DNA of 44,786 nt. Origin: a phage. The notes below the pieces were generated by a model. It worked only from the letters and a program-made list of their open reading frames with translations, was not told where the DNA came from and searched no databases. The stretch is from NCBI GenBank assembly GCA_012646845.1, contig GCA_012646845.1_4707.2. One strand, 5' to 3'. The position numbers and the translations under genes were made by a program. Positions 2,662 through 30,846 of this stretch are shown piece after piece. Every line of letters begins with the position of its first letter. Positions within the stretch are counted from its first letter, which is position 1.

Positions 2662-3060
2662 TTATGCTTCGCAATCAGCTGAAGGCGTCGCGCCTTTCTT
2701 ACCAACGATACGCCAAATCCGACACGCTGGGTAATGGTTAACCTCTAGAGAGCAAGGAATGTTATATTTCTCTTCCAGCGCATAAAGACATTTCGTTAGC
2801 TGCTCCAGCGCGTTCTCGTCGTGTCGTAACGCGTGGTGGCCTAATCGATGTTGGTCGTTCTTTATATACGCCTCGAAGAGAACATGTTGGCGATGTACGC
2901 TGACGTTTACAGCCTCGAGTATAGCTTGGTCGAGCATACGACTAAAGCACATCAACGAGTCAGATACGTTTTCTCGCTTAACCAGATCGATCATGGCGGG
3001 AATATACGAATGGTCGATGTTATCGATGACCGCTTTAGCGACGGAATCCGCAATGTTCAT
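2662..3060 (-). CDS. hypothetical protein, tandem paralog 1 (132 aa)
   Basis: N-terminus MNIADSVAKAVIDNIDH... closely matches neighbour MSIVESIVKAVNDNIDH... Confidence 0.7.
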   Translation of the reverse strand: MNIADSVAKAVIDNIDHSYIPAMIDLVKRENVSDSLMCFSRMLDQAILEAVNVSVHRQHVLFEAYIKNDQHRLGHHALRHDENALEQLTKCLYALEEKYNIPCSLEVNHYPACRIWRIVGKKGATPSADCEA

Positions 3061-3095
3061 CTTTTAATCCCTAGTTTGTTATTGATCACGTATAT

Positions 3096-3491
3096 TTACT
3101 CTTTGACGTCGGTTGTTGTTTCGGTGTGTTTCTCGCTGCTGATGTACCAGAGCAGGTACGCTGGGAAAAGATTGACCTCTAAGCTAAATGGGGTATTGTA
3201 TTTCTCTTCCATTTTACAGAGATGTTCTTTAAGTAAATTTCTCGCGTCACTATCACCACGAACAGAGTGCCAGTCTAGTTCTTTGTTCTCCTTTACCAGG
3301 ACCTCTACGATGATACGTTGCTCGTGAACCTCGGTTTTCACAGTGAAAAGTAAATCGCTGCTATCAAAACGGGTAAAACGAATGTATGAACCAGGTGTTT
3401 TTTCTTGTTTAATAATATCGATCATGGTAGAAATGCGCGGATGATCGATGTTGTCGTTAACAGCTTTAACGATGGATTCTACAATGCTCAT
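3096..3491 (-). CDS. hypothetical protein, tandem paralog 2 (131 aa)
   Basis: Shared N-terminal and central motifs (EEKYN.P.SLEVN) with 2662..3060. Confidence 0.7.
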   Translation of the reverse strand: MSIVESIVKAVNDNIDHPRISTMIDIIKQEKTPGSYIRFTRFDSSDLLFTVKTEVHEQRIIVEVLVKENKELDWHSVRGDSDARNLLKEHLCKMEEKYNTPFSLEVNLFPAYLLWYISSEKHTETTTDVKE

Positions 3492-4164: not shown

Positions 4165-4665
4165 TTACTCTTCTGTGTTTTCATTGTCGGGATCGTAGTG
4201 GAATTCGAACAGCCCTGAACCGTCGTGCCCGTTGATTGTTAGTATAACGGGCATATCGAATCCTCGGACACGCGAATGAAAACACTGTGCTAATTTTAGT
4301 TTGGCGTATGCCGCTATTTCATTGACGGCAATACACGACTCACCTGTTATACTCAGTATAACGTCGATACTAACAATGTTGGCGTGCAACGCAAAACGCC
4401 AGCGATCGATACGATTATTATCTTTATCGGTTGTCTCGTTTACGAGATAGACTTTATCGTCAACCGACAAAGCGGGACTCCAGCAACGTTCGTTTATTAA
4501 ATTCGCCTGGAGTTTTAGTATCGTCTGATCGATAATATCCCAACACGTAACCAGCGTGACGTCAGGCACTGAATTGAGAAGGGCGAGCACTTTATCCTTT
4601 ATTTTAAGTGCTTCCGCAGGACGCCCGCAAATACCATGCATTTCAACTTTCTTATCCATATTCAC
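4165..4665 (-). CDS. hypothetical protein (166 aa; GTG start, ATG two codons in)
   Basis: ORF track; start codon is GTG at 4663-4665, in-frame ATG at 4657-4659. Confidence 0.6.
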   Translation of the reverse strand: MNMDKKVEMHGICGRPAEALKIKDKVLALLNSVPDVTLVTCWDIIDQTILKLQANLINERCWSPALSVDDKVYLVNETTDKDNNRIDRWRFALHANIVSIDVILSITGESCIAVNEIAAYAKLKLAQCFHSRVRGFDMPVILTINGHDGSGLFEFHYDPDNENTEE

Positions 4666-5305: not shown

Positions 5306-5402
5306 ATTGAATTCCTTAAATTCTCTTGAGTTCAATTAATGATGAAAAGCTGTAAAAAAGGTGGGGCGAACCCCACCAAAACGTCAGACACACGCAGGAA
5401 AA

Positions 5403-5828
5403 TTAATTCAGTGACGCATATAACGCATAACGACTGTAGATCTCAACCGCCGGTCCGTTATGGGTTAACAGACCATCCTGGTTGTAATACTGGAAAAATG
5501 AATAACGTTTGTCGAAGTGATAAACAAAAGCAATGTCTTTGCCGTCAAAACCTGTGATGCGTGGTCTGTTTTTATCTAGCAATGCTTTGACTTTTAACAG
5601 TGTTGCCGCACGTGCTTTAACGTTAGGGATCAAGCCATCGCAATCGATATAAACTGTGTAACCTGTTTCAGATGTTGCGACGGTCGTATTGCGATTGATG
5701 CGAAAGATTTTTGTTTTGTATGTATCATCTTCAAGAATTGGGTTTTGTTTTTCGTATTTTCGTTTACGCAGAAATTCTACAACGGTAATATAGTTAGCGG
5801 TGATATGTCCGGTTATAGCTTGTAACAT
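5403..5828 (-). CDS. hypothetical protein (141 aa)
   Basis: ORF track; preceded by conserved leader GGATGTCAAG-ATG. Confidence 0.65.
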   Translation of the reverse strand: MLQAITGHITANYITVVEFLRKRKYEKQNPILEDDTYKTKIFRINRNTTVATSETGYTVYIDCDGLIPNVKARAATLLKVKALLDKNRPRITGFDGKDIAFVYHFDKRYSFFQYYNQDGLLTHNGPAVEIYSRYALYASLN

Positions 5829-5940
5829 CTTGACATCCTTTTATATTGGATTGGTTGCAATTGTCTTAAATAGATGATAAGATATTTTGCTCTTATCACT
5901 AAGGTAATATAGCCGTGAAATAGACTGCGTTAACAAGAAA
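5829..5940 (-). promoter_or_regulatory. Conserved promoter/leader module, copy 1
   Basis: Minus strand reads TTTCACGGCTATATTACCTTAG - hairpin (TGATAAGA..TCTTATCA) - CAATCCAATATAAAAGGATGTCAAG-ATG; same architecture at 29786-29889. Confidence 0.45.
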
Positions 5941-5948
5941 TAAAAACA

Positions 5949-6000
5949 GCATAAAACCTCCTCCCCCATCCTTCAAGAGGACGGTGGGAAGAGGGAGAGA
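5949..6000 (-). terminator. GCATAAAA-flanked GC-rich imperfect hairpin (family member)
   Basis: Lies immediately after stop of 6003..6404 on the minus strand. Confidence 0.4.
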
Positions 6001-7283: not shown

Positions 7284-8585
7284 TTAACTAATATAAAGTT
7301 CAGGATCGTAAGGCGCTAACGATACACTGGCGTTATGCATTGCTTTCATCATAGTGTTCATGAAAACGTTGTTTACACCGGTGATCTCTGCCCCGATCGC
7401 GTCTGGGGTTGGAGCCATCGCGTTACCGCAACAGGTAGCACAGTATTCCAACGGACCCGCTTTACAGCGTTGAGGATCGCGTAACTTGATGGTTTGTCCT
7501 TCCAAGGAAGCGAATAATTCAGCATCAATAAGTTTAAGCGCTGCGCCGTCGATCATGTAACGGCCGACAAGTAGCTTATCTTTGATGTGGTCGCGGTTTA
7601 CCGTGAACAGAATATGTTCTTGGGTGCCGCAGTCGTCCATCGTGATTTTAAGGTTCTGTGTTGCACGTTGCGATTCTTTAGCCGTTTGTCCGGCTAAAGC
7701 GGTCAACGCACCACGTGAGAACGAACCAGCACGTGCACTGTTGTTGTACTCCGCCCAATGGTCGACGCGCATCCCTTCGGCCAGGCTGTGTGTGATAACG
7801 TTACGTTTACCAGGGTCAACGAAGTCGGCTTCAACCCCCATCATGATGTGCGTTTTCTTTCGAGTATTACCGAAACTCTTACCGGGGTTAATATAGAACC
7901 CTTCCGATTCATCGCCCTTAAAGGATTCCTTATCCATTTTGGTTAGCGTGGCTTCGAGTTTGATCAGTTCTTCAGGGGTGAACTTACCTTCCTCTTGTAA
8001 GCGTGCCAACTCTTTATCACGATAGGCAATAATATCATCATCGACCGTTAACGCTTTATCGCTCATTGAAGGCACAATTAAGCGGTTGATAGCGGTTAAT
8101 GCGCTGATATTGTTGGTGAATTTCTTCACTTCGCTTGCGTACAGCGGACCAATCGGACGCTCGTTAGGATCGGGTATTCCCTCTTCGGGATCATCTGCTA
8201 CGCGCGGCGCAATCAGCGATTCTAGTGTGCCGCTGGTTAACCGTCCTGCCTGATATTCAATCTGAATACCGAAAGCGTCATAAAGGACGTACATATTGAA
8301 CAACGCTTCACCGAAGGTTGTGGTGGTTGTGTTCTTAACCGACGGTAGATCGCCAGGCGCAAGCTCCAACGGATCCCAGAAATTCAACAAGGGTTTTGTT
8401 GGTTCTGTTTCCCATTGGTGTTCTTCACCGTCGATGGTAACCGTAACGATGTTACCTTGACGACGTAATTTAGGCTGATACTTCTCAGCGCCCCCTTCCG
8501 TAAAAGCAAATGCGTCGTTAATCCACTCAAGATAACGGTAATGCCCTTCACGCAACGCGTAAAGGAAATAATCACGAGGTGTCAT
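7284..8585 (-). CDS. hypothetical protein (433 aa) with C-terminal Cys cluster (CATCCGNA)
   Basis: ORF track; long uninterrupted frame. Confidence 0.7.
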   Translation of the reverse strand: MTPRDYFLYALREGHYRYLEWINDAFAFTEGGAEKYQPKLRRQGNIVTVTIDGEEHQWETEPTKPLLNFWDPLELAPGDLPSVKNTTTTTFGEALFNMYVLYDAFGIQIEYQAGRLTSGTLESLIAPRVADDPEEGIPDPNERPIGPLYASEVKKFTNNISALTAINRLIVPSMSDKALTVDDDIIAYRDKELARLQEEGKFTPEELIKLEATLTKMDKESFKGDESEGFYINPGKSFGNTRKKTHIMMGVEADFVDPGKRNVITHSLAEGMRVDHWAEYNNSARAGSFSRGALTALAGQTAKESQRATQNLKITMDDCGTQEHILFTVNRDHIKDKLLVGRYMIDGAALKLIDAELFASLEGQTIKLRDPQRCKAGPLEYCATCCGNAMAPTPDAIGAEITGVNNVFMNTMMKAMHNASVSLAPYDPELYIS

Positions 8586-20075: not shown

Positions 20076-20660
20076 TTACACAGCTGTAGGAAGTTCAGGC
20101 CAATCGATATTTGGTGCTGTTGATGTGTCAACGCGGTGCAGAGCCACCCGATACTTTTTCCATGCTGTCAGCATCGACACCTCTTCTTCCGTTGCGATCT
20201 CCAGATCCACAGCATCCTGAAGTGGCGCAATACGATCATTCGCTGCCTGCATCAGACTGTTTTTTGTTTCTTCCGCCTCCCGGACATGGGATTGTTTTTC
20301 CGCATCTGTATCTTTCACCCAGGTTGTTCCGTCCCACTTCTGAAACTCTCCTTCCGGGGATAACCAAGTAGTATTTTCTGGTAACGGACCGAGTTCAGAA
20401 ATAAATAACGCGTCGCCGGAAGCCACATCATAGACGGTTTTACCCCGATGGTCTTCAACAATATACCACGATTCATTTTCACTGTTAAAAACTGCCACAA
20501 AGTCAGCAGGAATTTCCGGTGGGGCGATATCTGTAGAATTAGCTGGTAGTCCCGTATGCGGTGGAATATATGCGTCGCCTTCACCAATAAACTCATTGGT
20601 TCCGGCCAGCAGATTATAAATTTTTATGGTTTGTGGTTCATCACTCATTCTGAATGCCAT
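20076..20660 (-). CDS. tail fibre assembly protein (chaperone)
   Basis: Start overlaps fibre stop (TAATG); sequence resembles Tfa/gpG-type chaperones; position immediately downstream of fibre gene. Confidence 0.8.
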
Positions 20661-23314
20661 TATGCAAGCCTCACGATGTAGTTAAATGCGATGTTTTTGA
20701 CGGTGTTTTCCGCGTTACCCGCGGCGTTAACGGTGATGGTGTGTCCATGCGATCCAATCGCAACCGAGTGCGTATGCGCACCAATACCTACAGTATGTGC
20801 ATGTGCACCGGCACTCGCGGCTGTACCGGACAATGAGTGACTATGAGCGCCAGCAGAAGAAGTGTTGACATCGTATTTAGCATAATCAGGCGACCCACTT
20901 CCCGGAGTACCACTGGTGCCACCTGCGACAAATCTCATCGAGTGGGTGTGTGCTCCAGCCGTGTTTGTGGAACCACTCAGACTGTGCGTATGCGCCCCGG
21001 TGTTATTCGTGGTTTTAGTGCCGTAATCAAACGACGATGTGGTTTTCGTCCCCAAATCCGTACCGGATGCGCTGGCGCTATGGTTGTGCGATTTAATGCC
21101 GTCCTGTTCCTGAGACAATACAGCACGACCACTGGCAGGTTTGCCCTTAATCGTCCAGCCACGCATATCAGGAATAACGCCTGACGGATAAGCCACTGCA
21201 AGTTTCGGGTATACAGATTTGTCAAAAGTCTGCCCTTGCATCAGAGCATAACCAGACGGAACGGTATCTGAAGGCCATGGAATAGGCGTACCAACAGGCA
21301 ACGCTGAACCGCCATCCGAACCCGCATCTTTGGTTGGTATAACGATGTTCGCCGAGCCGTCGAACTCAATACCGTTGATTGTGACAGCCGTTTGCAATTT
21401 CGTGGCTGTCGCAGCGTTACCCGTCGTATTCTGATTACCAACCGCATTGACGCCCGGTAATGCAATATCCGCTGTTCCGTCAAAGGCAACACCACCGATT
21501 TTACGTGCGGTTTGTAGCTTGGTTGCACTAGCGGCGTTACCGCTGGTATTCTGGGTGCCAGCTTTGTTAACACCGGGGAGATCGATGTTAGCAGAACCAT
21601 CGAAGCTGACGCCACCTATCGTTCTTGCGGTAGCGAGTTTAGCTGCTGTGGCTGCATTATTACCCACTTTCAGCCAATCATCCCATGGGCCATCCTGGCC
21701 GTTCCATGCTGCCGTTAAACTACGTACGTAAATATTGCCGGTACGTACAGTGTAACGTTGCGTTCCACCGAATTGTCCGGCAGGGAGCACTTCAAGGTAA
21801 CCTGCGGCATTTGCTTCAGGGAAATTGTGGGCGACGTCCGCGTTCGTTGATACTGGTTTAGACCAAATACCCACGGACGCTTCAACCGGACCGTAAGTAT
21901 TCAGATTTGCGTCGGTGGGGAGCTGTCCTCGAAAACGCTGGAATTGTGTTGCCGATAACCCCAACGTTGTTTGCATGCTTTCAATGCTGGATTGCTGCAG
22001 TAACGTCCGTGCTGTCGACGTAATCACGGTAAGCGCAACTTTATTAACACCGGTGAAATACGGGAGTTTGTCTGCTGATGTCACTAAACCTGAAAAGGCG
22101 GTCAGTAATTCGTTAAGGGGTTGCTTCCCAGCTAACGCATTTGTTACCGTCGTTGCGAAATTAGGATCGCTTCCTATAGCTCGAGCCAGCTTATTAAGCG
22201 TATTTAGCGTCGCTGGTGACGAGTCGATCAGTGCCGTGATCGCACGCATCACAAATTCCGTGTTGGCTATCTGTCGACTGCTATCGTTAACTGCTGCGGT
22301 GGGCGCTGCTGGCGTACCAGTGAATACAGGGCTATTAAGATCCGCCTTGAGGGCGATGAGGCGTTTAAGCGCTTCAACATCAACTTTCAGGTTTTCCCAT
22401 CCGATGAGAGAACCATCACCGTTGGCATGATAACGGTTGTACCAGAAGTCACCGTTAACGCCAAAAAAGAATATACATTTCTCTTCGTTTTGTGGACCGG
22501 AACTATTTCGTGATGAGTCGATATATTTGATTTCAATAAGACCGCTAAACACCACCCCTGGGATTATATTGTTGTCTCCAGCTGACTGTGATACCTGGTA
22601 CATCCCCGGGGTTGCGGCTTTAACCCATGTTAAGAATTCTGTTACTCCAGCGGTACCGCTAAAATTCTTAACGTCGGTAAGTATCGCCCCATAACCGAAC
22701 ATACCGGGTAGAGCCACTCGTCCGCTGGTACGATCACGAATATCTGTCGCAACAACAGGCAATTGTTTACGAACGGCATTAACCGCTTTAGGCGTGGCCG
22801 ATTTTGTCTCGTCGTCGCTATCGGTTTCATTACTTAGAATAGTTAAACCGCGTGTAGCAGTAGTTGCATCAGGAAGAAATGCGTTATCCAACACCTTAAG
22901 CTGTATTGCACTCGTATTACTAACAACGACATGCACCTGACAGTTAAGAACGCTGGTTGCGCCTTCGGCAGGCGTAGGCTTATATCTTTCTGGCGCACTG
23001 CAGACGGCAATCAGAACACCTTGGTCGTCATACAGACCGATCTCACGTACCCAGAACCCACCTTGACTAGCAGGAATAATACCCTCAACGATAATCCTGG
23101 TTGTACTATCGCCATCCGTATGGACATTGGAAACTTCCCCACGATAAACTTCATGGACAAGCGCTGTTTGACTGGTGGTTGGGGTTGGGATCGAACCACT
23201 ACCATCGCCAACGGCAAAGTGTGTGATTTTTAGTTTCTTACCGTCAGGAAGTAACGCTGCAGCGATACGTTCTGCGCCTTTATCGGTAACGACCGTTTTA
23301 TATGCTGTACTCAT
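20660..23314 (-). CDS. tail fibre protein, P2 gpH-like N-terminus, internal repeats, His-rich C-terminus
   Basis: N-terminus [21 protein letters not shown]...[20 protein letters not shown] resembles gpH-type collar domain; ~39-aa tandem repeats ([28 protein letters not shown]); C-terminal GAHTHS repeats. Confidence 0.9.
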
Positions 23315-29409: not shown

Positions 29410-29437
29410 GATAAAGATCCTTATTGAAATAAAATCG

Positions 29438-29466
29438 GTATAAAGCCCCCCATTTAGGGGGACCTG
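29438..29466 (-). terminator. GGTATAAA-flanked short GC hairpin (family member)
   Basis: GCCCCCC-ATTTA-GGGGG after stop of 29468..29785. Confidence 0.35.
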
Positions 29467-29467
29467 A

Positions 29468-29785
29468 TTAGTTTGCACTTAAGAAATGGCCCAGAACCGT
29501 TACGATTGGAAACAGTCCCGTAACCGTATTATCGCCAGAAAACATCATCTTTGAGTCGTTAACCGTAATGAAACGGATGTCGGTTGCAGACCCATCGATA
29601 GCGACAAAACGCATCGAGTTTGGTGGAAGATCCTCAACAACTTCCACGAGGTGTTCACGATTTTCAAAGGCTTCTTTAACACGACGCATGAAACGAATCA
29701 ATGTTCCTTCAGCGTCGGCTTCCAAATGACCTAAGATATCGCGATTATTACGAATAGCGAATACAGCCATTTTAAACATACACAT
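29468..29785 (-). CDS. hypothetical protein (105 aa)
   Basis: ORF track; same conserved leader as 5403..5828. Confidence 0.6.
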   Translation of the reverse strand: MCMFKMAVFAIRNNRDILGHLEADAEGTLIRFMRRVKEAFENREHLVEVVEDLPPNSMRFVAIDGSATDIRFITVNDSKMMFSGDNTVTGLFPIVTVLGHFLSAN

Positions 29786-29889
29786 CTTGACATCCTCTTA
29801 TATTGGATTGATTGCTAATAATTCAAGGTGAAGTCAATGACTCCATTGCTTCACCTAGGTAATATAGCCGTGAAAATTAATGCATTGAC
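29786..29889 (-). promoter_or_regulatory. Conserved promoter/leader module, copy 2
   Basis: Minus strand reads TTTTCACGGCTATATTACCTAG - hairpin (GGTGAAG..CTTCACC) - CAATCCAATATAAGAGGATGTCAAG-ATG. Confidence 0.45.
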
Positions 29890-30846
29890 TCACGTCTTTG
29901 CTACATGGGGCTGAATCTCGTCGATGCGTTTAACCACAACCTCAGGGAAAAGTTGGAGGATTTCGTCAGGTGGTGTCGTACCTTCTGTCCAACGATAACG
30001 TTCAACCTTTTCGATGCGTGGACTCCCTCCGACGTCAGCGATACGAAAGATACAGGCGATGCCTAAATCGAAACATACGCTGTAAATATCTTCCGTACCT
30101 CCTTTATCGGCAAGTATTTTCGCAAAATGCTCGTTATCAGGAAGAATGGCTAAATTACGGATACACCAAACATTATCACCCATTTCTTCAAGTTTTGGGT
30201 AGGTTAAAGTGTGCCCGTAGCATGTTAACCATCGATGATTTTCTAGGCGGAAGTCCTTATCTCCTGGCCGATAACCCAGTATCACCTCGGTGTAGAAAAG
30301 ATTGGGCATATCGAGCAGTTCTTGCACTGTCGGGCCGGTATGCTCCCAGAGACAGATTTGTTTACGGTCTATATCGTAATCTGTGACGTTACTCACCTCC
30401 CAACTTATCGTAAGTTCATCGACAACGTGCCAACCTAAAGCATGTTCACCACCAAGCAGATTAACAATAGCTGCTATCTCGTGCTTGTCAAATACCCCCA
30501 AATTCTGCGGTGGTTGCATCGTACGTAATGGCTCCCATAACGCACTGTAATCATAGAGCAAATGACGACACAGACTTTTTGTTAAGGGGGTATGTTCAGT
30601 AAACAGTGGAAGAATCACCGTATCCAGCAACGGACGTAATGGATGATTGTCGGGTGGCAACGAAGCGTATAACCGACTTTCCTTTTTAGGAATGTCGTAA
30701 CCAAACCCGTAACGCTCCGAAATGAGTGCAATCAGCACTTTTGCTACGCGGTTACGTAGCATGCGATGGATATCATCACTGTAACTGAATTTCGGTTTAT
30801 TACCGCAAACGAAGGTGAAGTATCTGGGCGTTAGCGCAGCCATCAT
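29890..30846 (-). CDS. hypothetical protein (318 aa)
   Basis: ORF track. Confidence 0.7.
   Translation of the reverse strand: MMAALTPRYFTFVCGNKPKFSYSDDIHRMLRNRVAKVLIALISERYGFGYDIPKKESRLYASLPPDNHPLRPLLDTVILPLFTEHTPLTKSLCRHLLYDYSALWEPLRTMQPPQNLGVFDKHEIAAIVNLLGGEHALGWHVVDELTISWEVSNVTDYDIDRKQICLWEHTGPTVQELLDMPNLFYTEVILGYRPGDKDFRLENHRWLTCYGHTLTYPKLEEMGDNVWCIRNLAILPDNEHFAKILADKGGTEDIYSVCFDLGIACIFRIADVGGSPRIEKVERYRWTEGTTPPDEILQLFPEVVVKRIDEIQPHVAKT

Follow-up and report, generated by a model that had tools for sequence, protein, structure and literature searches.

A duplicated module of early promoter, predicted 5' hairpin and ribosome-binding leader upstream of two unrelated genes in a Goslar-like jumbo phage

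Two copies of the module on the minus strand

The stretch of DNA analysed here (the window, 44,786 nucleotides (nt) of the phage contig GCA_012646845.1_4707.2) holds two copies of a repeated module on its minus strand. The module combines an early promoter, a predicted 5' hairpin and a 33-base ribosome-binding leader, and is common to two unrelated genes. The window itself belongs to a Goslar-like chimallivirus (Chimalliviridae): a 20-kb slice is 92% identical to Escherichia phage vB_EcoM_Goslar over 91% of the query, and it is syntenic with Goslar gp070-gp126, where the shared genes include one for an RNA polymerase (RNAP) beta-like subunit. Goslar is a nucleus-forming jumbo phage of 237 kb and the E. 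coli model of nucleus-forming phages.

Copy 2 reads, from position 29889 down to 29783, TTTTCACGGCTATATTACCTAG-GTGAAG(15 nt)CTTCACC-TTGAATTAT-TAGCAATCAATCCAATATAAGAGGATGTCAAG-ATG. Its early promoter covers 29853..29889 (-), corresponding to -1 to -37, directly abuts the stop codon of the upstream open reading frame (ORF) 29890..30846, and contains the conserved box A (29857-29875) with the core TATATTAC at 29859-29866 (-14 to -7). The predicted transcription start at 29852 (-) is the G of an invariant T-G-A, 6 nt past TATATTAC, and is placed by homology with a tolerance of about 3 nt to either side. The inverted repeat GGTGAAG/CTTCACC with an inner helix CAATG/CATTG (29827..29855 (-)) is followed by the linker TTGAATTATTA (29816..29826 (-)), which is not conserved in copy 1, and by box B, the shared leader GCAATCAATCCAATATAAGAGGATGTCAAGATG (29783..29815 (-)). 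Within box B, the Shine-Dalgarno sequence GAGGA (29793-29797) is separated by a 7-nt spacer from the ATG at 29785-29783, which is the start of a 105-amino acid (aa) ORF (29468..29785 (-)) orthologous to Goslar gp105.

Copy 1 (5826-5934 (-)) lies 5' of the 141-aa ORF 5403..5828 (-), the orthologue of Goslar gp075. Here, the early promoter extends over 5898..5934 (-), with box A at 5902-5920 and the TATATTAC core at 5904-5911, and the transcription start is predicted by homology at 5897 (-). The inverted repeat GTGATAAGA/TCTTATCAT encloses an 8-nt loop (5874..5899 (-)), and box B including the Shine-Dalgarno sequence, GCAACCAATCCAATATAAAAGGATGTCAAGATG, occupies 5826..5858 (-) and ends with the ATG at 5826-5828.

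The 19 nt of box A (TTTCACGGCTATATTACCT) have the same letters in both copies and box B is identical at 31 of 33 nt, while the segment between the two boxes cannot be aligned. A repeat finder run on the window reports the similarity as 34 nt at 94% (family D11) and 39 nt at 79% (family D8). Box A has no further match in the window, either with up to 3 mismatches in the tool scan or with up to 5 in a script, and the box B pattern CAATCCAATATAARAGGATGTCAAGATG (28 nt, one R) occurs exactly twice; for both, the number expected by chance is 0.00. The original prediction of a duplicated promoter and leader upstream of a gene, with near-identical boxes flanking a hairpin that differs in sequence but keeps its stem at the same place, is thus borne out. 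The layout given there for copy 2 was also right, apart from the 9 nt of TTGAATTAT between the hairpin and TAGCAA, which had been left out. The 5' arm of the hairpin (GTGA...) is at the same time the conserved initiation region of the promoter, and box and hairpin overlap.

Apart from this module, the two genes have no recognisable relationship. BLASTP of the 141-aa against the 105-aa protein gave no alignment, neither protein belongs to a Pfam family, and matches to PHROG are marginal only; paralogy of the two genes was therefore rejected. In a phage collection and IMG/VR, orthologues of gp075 and gp105 were found in Goslar-like phages only; both genes are ORFans.

Box A belongs to a family of early promoters

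The whole Goslar genome, assembled from six pieces, was scanned with the pattern YTAYATTACYT-NNN-TG. All 13 matches lie on the minus strand, and all are intergenic and 5' of genes; one of them (49723-49741) is located inside the annotated start of gp047. The genes behind these sites are gp004, gp021, gp040, gp046/047, gp075, gp105, gp159, gp175, gp182, gp200, gp214, gp225 and chmA (gp246), which encodes the nuclear shell protein chimallin. The two promoters of the window correspond to the Goslar sites 86696 and 113788, and their predicted starts to Goslar 86691 and 113783. The description as a two-copy module does therefore not hold for box A, which is a clade-wide early promoter with 13 sites in Goslar; box B alone is specific to two genes. 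As a side aspect, the annotated gp047 ORF of Goslar (49584-49772) contains the promoter at 49723-49741 and has its start codon 5' of the predicted transcription start, and this annotated start is probably wrong.

The conserved promoter block extends from about -40 to +2, is longer than the box originally described, and ends in the invariant T-G-A. The T-G, whose G comes 6 nt past the core, is invariant at all 13 Goslar sites and at both window sites, and the inverted repeats reach up to 3-6 nt further upstream. By homology, we predict that T-G-A represents -1, +1 and +2 and that TATATTAC extends from -14 to -7; transcription would probably start at the G of TGA or at most 3 nt from it.

This layout is known from other jumbo phages. 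We compared 7 sites of the early-promoter type in the first 50 kb of phiKZ, all of which carry the TATATTAC core; the arrangement TATATTAC-(5N)-T-G of phiKZ early promoters has the same spacing as in the Goslar clade. The AR9 promoter has been described as AAATATATATTAT-(6N)-G+1, with the core also given as TATATTAT, and transcription in phiKZ and phiR1-37 starts 6 nt past the consensus (PMC5312081). According to a review, the early operons of every jumbo phage encoding an RNAP are preceded by such a motif with its centre near -10, which the virion RNA polymerase (vRNAP) uses (PMC7598289). The Goslar sites share with the vRNAP promoters of phiKZ and AR9 the core about 10 nt 5' of the start, the G 6 nt past the core, the many copies at early operons and the expression at the earliest stage. 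They differ in clade-specific flanks, namely TTTCACGR 5' of the core, YT-NNN-TGA 3' of it, and two upstream sub-types (GTTAAT... or TTGAAAAAAA). Of five features that define phiKZ-type vRNAP early promoters, four are found here in full and the fifth, the start position, at the level of the sequence. Box A is therefore very probably a vRNAP early promoter.

As working consensus of the Goslar clade we propose approximately TTTCACGRCTAYATTACYT-NNN-TGA with the start at G. No published early-promoter consensus for Goslar was found in the literature searched, and a full-text search with 'TATATTAC' alone returned unrelated papers only. The promoter class as such is already known, and nothing in our data overturns the current understanding; new are a consensus for the Goslar clade, 5'-terminal hairpins that show some compensatory change, the leader shared by two genes and a wandering leader cassette.

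For the link to early expression we used published Goslar RNA-seq data from a ChmA knock-down (10.1101/2023.09.20.558163, Sup. Table 2), and the values thus refer to the Goslar orthologues and not to the phage of the window. The knock-down arrests the infection at the early vesicle stage, at which the injected virion polymerase alone transcribes (10.1101/2023.09.20.558163). Under these conditions the genes fall into two classes, 'on' with a log2 fold-change of about +0.5 to +1.3 and 'off' with -3 to -7. The first gene past each of the 13 sites is 'on' without exception (+0.5 to +1.3), including gp075 (+1.05 to +1.17) and gp105 (+0.96 to +1.08). At 8 of the 13 sites the neighbour on the upstream side is 'off', as for gp076 (-4.5 to -6.1) next to gp075; further off/on pairs are gp005/gp004, gp022/gp021, gp041/gp040, gp048/gp047 and gp213/gp214. 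Two more sites are marked by a step-up, from about +0.1 to about +1.0 between gp106 and gp105, and from about -0.5 to +0.9 between gp176 and gp175. Besides, the published 'TSS sequence' (transcription start site sequence) of chmA, which starts 91 nt 5' of its ATG (10.1101/2023.09.20.558163), begins 2 nt before the box A of chmA. The consensus hence matches the boundaries of vesicle-stage transcription one-to-one, which makes the early units easy to annotate and to engineer.

Box B is a translation-initiation leader shared by two genes

Box B was found nowhere else in Goslar or in the window, even when 7 mismatches were allowed. It is restricted to the gp075 and gp105 orthologues, and all the Goslar-like genomes recovered carry it at both. 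Three positions vary among 17 sequences from the two loci: the N in GCAA-N-CAATCC, the R of the Shine-Dalgarno sequence and an R five nt before the ATG. The stretch CAATCCAATATAA 5' of the Shine-Dalgarno sequence is invariant in all 17 sequences, 12 of them distinct and aligned. Box B is at least a translation-initiation region: its leader is A/U-rich, and its Shine-Dalgarno sequence, GAGGA or AAGGA, is separated by 7 nt from the AUG. On balance, we take it for an ordinary duplicated ribosome-binding leader and not for an operator.

Two structural candidates were rejected for this region. For a known RNA family, Rfam 15 gave no match at E<=1 around copy 2 and only far-sub-threshold chance matches to irrelevant families around copy 1. 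A structure sequestering the Shine-Dalgarno sequence would consist of helices of only 4-5 bp, which are not significant (z -0.75 for copy 2).

The operator alternative would imply that a phage protein or RNA binds box B and co-regulates just these two early genes, a possibility that is compatible with the early-expression cassette proposed below. It would account for the near-identity of box B in spite of unrelated hairpins and coding regions and for the invariance of CAATCCAATATAA at both loci, and it has a precedent in ChmC of related phages, which binds phage mRNAs near start codons (10.1101/2023.09.22.559000). However, no partner was found: the sole antisense match, TCCAATATAAG, covers 11 nt of box B and lies at 166002-166012 (+) in the early leader of Goslar gp182. 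Pairing in trans with this leader was rejected and the match treated as chance, since the predicted duplex is no stronger than usual (17% of random segments reach its energy), and the 10-mer count in the genome is near chance. The weak, non-significant structure around the Shine-Dalgarno sequence and the lack of an Rfam match also speak against an operator. Because the genomes are only about 8% diverged, the invariance of box B among orthologues is weak evidence, and an equally identical promoter and leader pair in phiKZ points to simple duplication. We regard a translational operator as rather unlikely.

Predicted folding and evolution of the 5' hairpins

Both hairpins fold better than shuffled sequence. 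The inverted repeats of 27-28 nt reach -8.9 kcal/mol in copy 2 (z -2.8; 1 of 200 shuffles as good) and -9.6 kcal/mol in copy 1 (z -5.7; 0 of 200), and the 15-nt 'loop' of copy 2 holds a further 5-bp helix, CAATG/CATTG. When the RNA is folded from the predicted +1, copy 2 gives a bulged stem-loop of 9 bp over nt 1-23 (29852-29830), GAAGCAAUG-GAGU-CAUUG-a-CUUC, with -8.8 kcal/mol (z -2.6) and nt 1 paired. Copy 1 gives a 7-bp stem over nt 1-22 (5897-5876), GAUAAGA-GCAAAAUA-UCUUAUC, with -7.6 kcal/mol (z -3.7).

For the evolution of the hairpins we relied on about 10 other Goslar-like genomes from IMG/VR and metagenomes, which provide 8 sequence variants, 4 of them of the copy 2 type. Nucleotide 1 is paired in the predicted fold of all 8 variants and of both window copies. 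In the gp075 hairpin of two genomes the 8-nt loop is wholly swapped from GCAAAATA to CATCGGGT with the stem intact, and in one genome a C to U change turns a G-C pair of the hairpin into G.U. The gp105-type hairpin has an invariant basal stem, and its upper stem and loop vary. Clearer changes are found in sister leaders. In the gp021 leader, two pairs are changed on both sides and one more shows a wobble change; pairing is 100%, and sliding the partner columns lowers it to 14-47%. Only two substitutions occur in 51 nt of the gp046 leader, and together they convert one A-U pair into G-C. Of the 13 early leaders of Goslar, 7 have nt 1 in a predicted pair and 9 have nt 1 or nt 2 in one; at control TGA sites the fractions are 25% and 30%, respectively (P = 0.02 and 0.004).

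These data correct one part of the original prediction. Strictly, the hairpin is not covarying, since the gp075-type orthologues lack double-sided changes and the two copies, which cannot be aligned, are two different hairpins. Conservation at the level of structure, for which the comparison of the copies had been said to argue, is supported indirectly by the loop swap with an intact stem, by the folding of nt 1 in all variants and by the compensation in sister leaders, but not by covariation in this hairpin itself.

A 5' hairpin is not general to the early promoters of phiKZ: among the 7 sites in the first 50 kb it is strong in the chimallin leader only. Because many early leaders of Goslar and most of those examined in phiKZ are without a convincing one, the hairpin is not a requirement of the promoter class. 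It is a frequent, apparently selected feature of a subset of early leaders, outside the definition of the promoter. As an observation in its own right, the chimallin mRNAs of both phages have a predicted hairpin at nt 1, with -8.8 kcal/mol (z -3.0) in phiKZ (45582 +) and -9.1 kcal/mol (z -2.5) in Goslar (172964 -), and the two sequences are unrelated.

A proposed early-expression cassette and the alternatives

Overall, and with moderate confidence, we explain each copy best as a complete cassette for early gene expression in a nucleus-forming jumbo phage of the Goslar type. Box A together with about 15 nt upstream would form a phiKZ-type promoter for the multisubunit RNA polymerase that travels in the virion and enters the cell together with the DNA. 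The transcript would open with a stem-loop in which pairing begins at the predicted +1, and this 5'-terminal hairpin may shield the 5' end from RppH and 5'-end-dependent RNase E and thereby stabilise an mRNA needed in the first minutes of infection. Box B would supply translation initiation, and the occurrence of the same cassette before two unrelated ORFans would probably result from copying or recombination of cassettes between early promoters. The repeat, the promoter family with its tie to early expression and the predicted folds are direct results of the comparison; the exact start site, the stabilisation by the hairpin and the origin from a duplicated cassette are inferred.

In E. coli, 5' stem-loops as in ompA-type leaders block RppH and 5'-end-dependent RNase E. 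The leaders described here resemble these stabilising stem-loops in having a predicted hairpin at the very 5' end without unpaired 5' nucleotides and an unstructured ribosome-binding region downstream. They differ in that the 5' arm also serves as the promoter's initiation region and that the stems are short (7-9 bp). By this analogy, the stem-loop may act in the RNA as a 5'-terminal protective structure, and mRNA stabilisation is the role that we tentatively favour.

Several points weigh against this interpretation. The +1 of both copies is placed by homology only, and several of the inverted repeats reach 1-6 bp 5' of it. In the gp046 leader, the pair with compensatory changes is placed at -2, which fits an RNA starting exactly at +1 less well, and the fold-register test is blunt, as offsets from -4 to 0 give similar counts. 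In the gp075-type hairpin, 7 of 10 pairs are invariant among 8 orthologues, two switch between G.U and G-C, and none is changed on both sides. Depending on the criterion, about a third to half of the early leaders of Goslar and most of the phiKZ leaders examined are without a convincing 5' hairpin. Among orthologues, 2 of 28 nt vary in box B and 4 of 19 in the adjacent linker, so that box B is not clearly the more strongly conserved of the two. In addition, the published read counts are duplicate-removed, amount to about 1 read per nt for most genes and look saturated, and for this reason they cannot test a stabilising effect.

The offset of the repeats relative to +1 would be accounted for if the inverted repeat worked in the DNA, either as a hairpin or cruciform that aids melting or escape of the vRNAP, or as a palindromic operator. 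The repeats of the gp105, gp075 and gp046 leaders include positions -3 to -1, versions of the leader cassette described below (CCTTCATGA/TCATGAAGG) span -6 to +3, and the gp046 change at -2 as well as the register of the fold enrichment from -4 to 0 would fit too. However, the stem sequences are unrelated between promoters, so that no single DNA-binding protein could read them, and the loops have about 3-13 nt. Moreover, about half of the 13 promoters are without a repeat by the nt-1 criterion and are early-expressed all the same, and phiKZ promoters of the same layout are mostly without one. In phage N4, a single-subunit enzyme recognises a short DNA hairpin 5' of +1, with a stem of 5-7 bp and a 3-nt loop. 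What both systems have in common is that the virion brings in an RNA polymerase and that an inverted repeat lies near the start. In our case, in contrast, the recognised element is the TATATTAC box, and the repeat is downstream of or overlaps +1, is variable and is absent from many promoters of the class. An N4-type hairpin promoter was accordingly rejected: the repeats start between -3 and +1, run downstream, have loops of 4-13 nt, differ between promoters and are absent from about half of them. A function of the repeat in the DNA thus appears unlikely.

A neutral leftover of a recent duplication, its hairpins being chance inverted repeats without function, would be in line with the close relationship of the compared genomes, with the lack of double-sided covariation in this hairpin and with an enrichment of 5' hairpins that is only moderate. 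The duplication is, however, older than the split of at least 8 genomes, all of which keep both copies. The segment between the boxes has diverged past alignment and both versions still fold, with 0 or 1 of 200 shuffles as good, while the exchange of a loop on an intact stem and the compensatory changes in sister leaders do not fit chance repeats either. We consider neutrality quite unlikely.

The hairpin might also be a processing site for RNase III or RNase E, or an attenuator or terminator within the leader. No terminator lies between the upstream gene gp106 and the promoter of copy 2, and gp106 is transcribed, so that read-through RNAs would carry the full repeat internally; products of premature termination in 5' untranslated regions are, furthermore, described for phiKZ (PMC10914365). 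A terminator or attenuator was rejected, because the stems are followed by CUUGAAUUA and CUAUUUAAG, neither of which is a U-tract, and the terminator scan calls nothing there. The stems also have only 7-9 bp, and typical substrates of RNase III are far longer. Both forms of this explanation are very unlikely.

A host sigma-70 promoter with leader is most improbable and was rejected: copy 1 matches TTAACG-16-TATATT at 9 of 12 positions, but copy 2 has no match, sigma-70-like sites are no more frequent than in shuffles, the conserved block runs through the spacer to +2 unlike in sigma-70 promoters, and the motif is of the phiKZ/AR9 vRNAP type, with phiKZ-type transcription being independent of the host RNAP (PMC7598289, PMC10914365).

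Probable duplication and possible mobility of leader cassettes

Returning to the early-expression cassette, the pair most likely arose by duplication of a promoter-leader cassette, after which the hairpin segment would have been exchanged or would have diverged with the stem kept. A comparable case is found in phiKZ, where the same promoter and leader up to the Shine-Dalgarno sequence occur at about 2665 and 4516 (+), 5' of PHIKZ006 and PHIKZ010.1. Both pairs thus place an early promoter and a leader reaching to the Shine-Dalgarno sequence before two different genes. They differ in that the phiKZ leader is wholly identical and without a 5' hairpin, whereas here a divergent hairpin is located between two conserved boxes. 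Duplication of promoter/leader modules therefore recurs in this phage family.

A further example is a leader cassette of 39-53 nt that is located between TATATTAC and a second ACCTnnnTGA. One version of 45 nt, TTCATGATGCCATGCATCATGAACGCGACGCGTAAGCGTTACCTT, occurs unchanged in two Goslar-like genomes, in one of them at the gp021 promoter and in the other at the gp075 promoter, in each case between TATATTAC and the native start region. Diverged versions are present at gp200, both in Goslar and in a relative, and in a third genome at gp075. The cassette is positioned at about 226,640-226,690 (-) in Goslar and at about 3058-3102 (+) and 4384-4436 (+) in other records of the Goslar clade, with one more on the minus strand. 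Folded from +1, the cassette RNA reaches -19 to -26 kcal/mol. It looks like the product of promoter-to-promoter recombination or like a small mobile leader element.

Early leaders of this clade hence offer three testable features: the 5' hairpins, some with compensatory changes, the leader common to two ORFans and the cassette at different promoters. As a wider speculation, which we consider rather improbable, early mRNAs of nucleus-forming jumbo phages could carry a modular 5' 'address label', consisting of a hairpin from the first base and, in some, of a shared leader such as box B, with cassettes mobile between early promoters, as the 45-nt version at different promoters suggests, and a label that controls something specific to the life cycle beyond stability. 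If this were true, candidate processes would be the exit of mRNA from the early vesicle, the hand-over to ribosomes, or a timed translational shut-off of a subset of genes.

Neighbouring genes, terminators and repeats

The annotation of Goslar includes several RNA polymerase beta-like subunits, and the 433-aa ORF 7284..8585 (-) of the window is syntenic with gp078.

Both module genes are followed by a terminator or terminator-like element. Past the 141-aa gene, a canonical intrinsic terminator (GGTGGGG TTCG CCCCACC TTTTTT) is found at 5354..5377 (-), and Goslar has one annotated at the same place. Past the 105-aa gene, a terminator-like element extends over 29425-29465 (-), with the hairpin GGUCCCCCU/GGGGGGCUU at 29443..29465 followed by UAUACCGAUUUUAUUU (-16.4 kcal/mol, z -2.4). 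The terminator of the upstream late gene sits directly 5' of promoter copy 1 (5945..5994 (-)) and consists of a C-rich/G-rich hairpin at 5957-5994 and then GUUUUAUGCUGU (-28.4 kcal/mol, z -4.1). In both the 5945-5994 and the 29425-29465 element, a C-rich/G-rich hairpin is followed by (T)TTAT... instead of a plain T-run, and a canonical scan calls neither. Both match the phiKZ terminator motif ...GGGRRGGBYTTATKYYGT (PMC10914365). Since the published Goslar counts do not drop past gp075 or gp105, with early expression running on through gp070 and gp094, respectively, the hairpins after the 141-aa and 105-aa genes are probably leaky.

Elsewhere in the window, the tail-fibre tip and assembly genes at 20089-21298 share 85-88% DNA identity with side-tail-fibre modules of many lambdoid coliphages, and Goslar differs in this region; judged by this similarity, the segment resembles a horizontally exchanged host-range module. 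Finally, neighbouring small ORFs on the minus strand contain direct repeats at 18006-18136/18763-18893 (131 nt, 85%) and at 2938-3066/3369-3497 (129 nt, 71%), which are probably tandem gene duplications.

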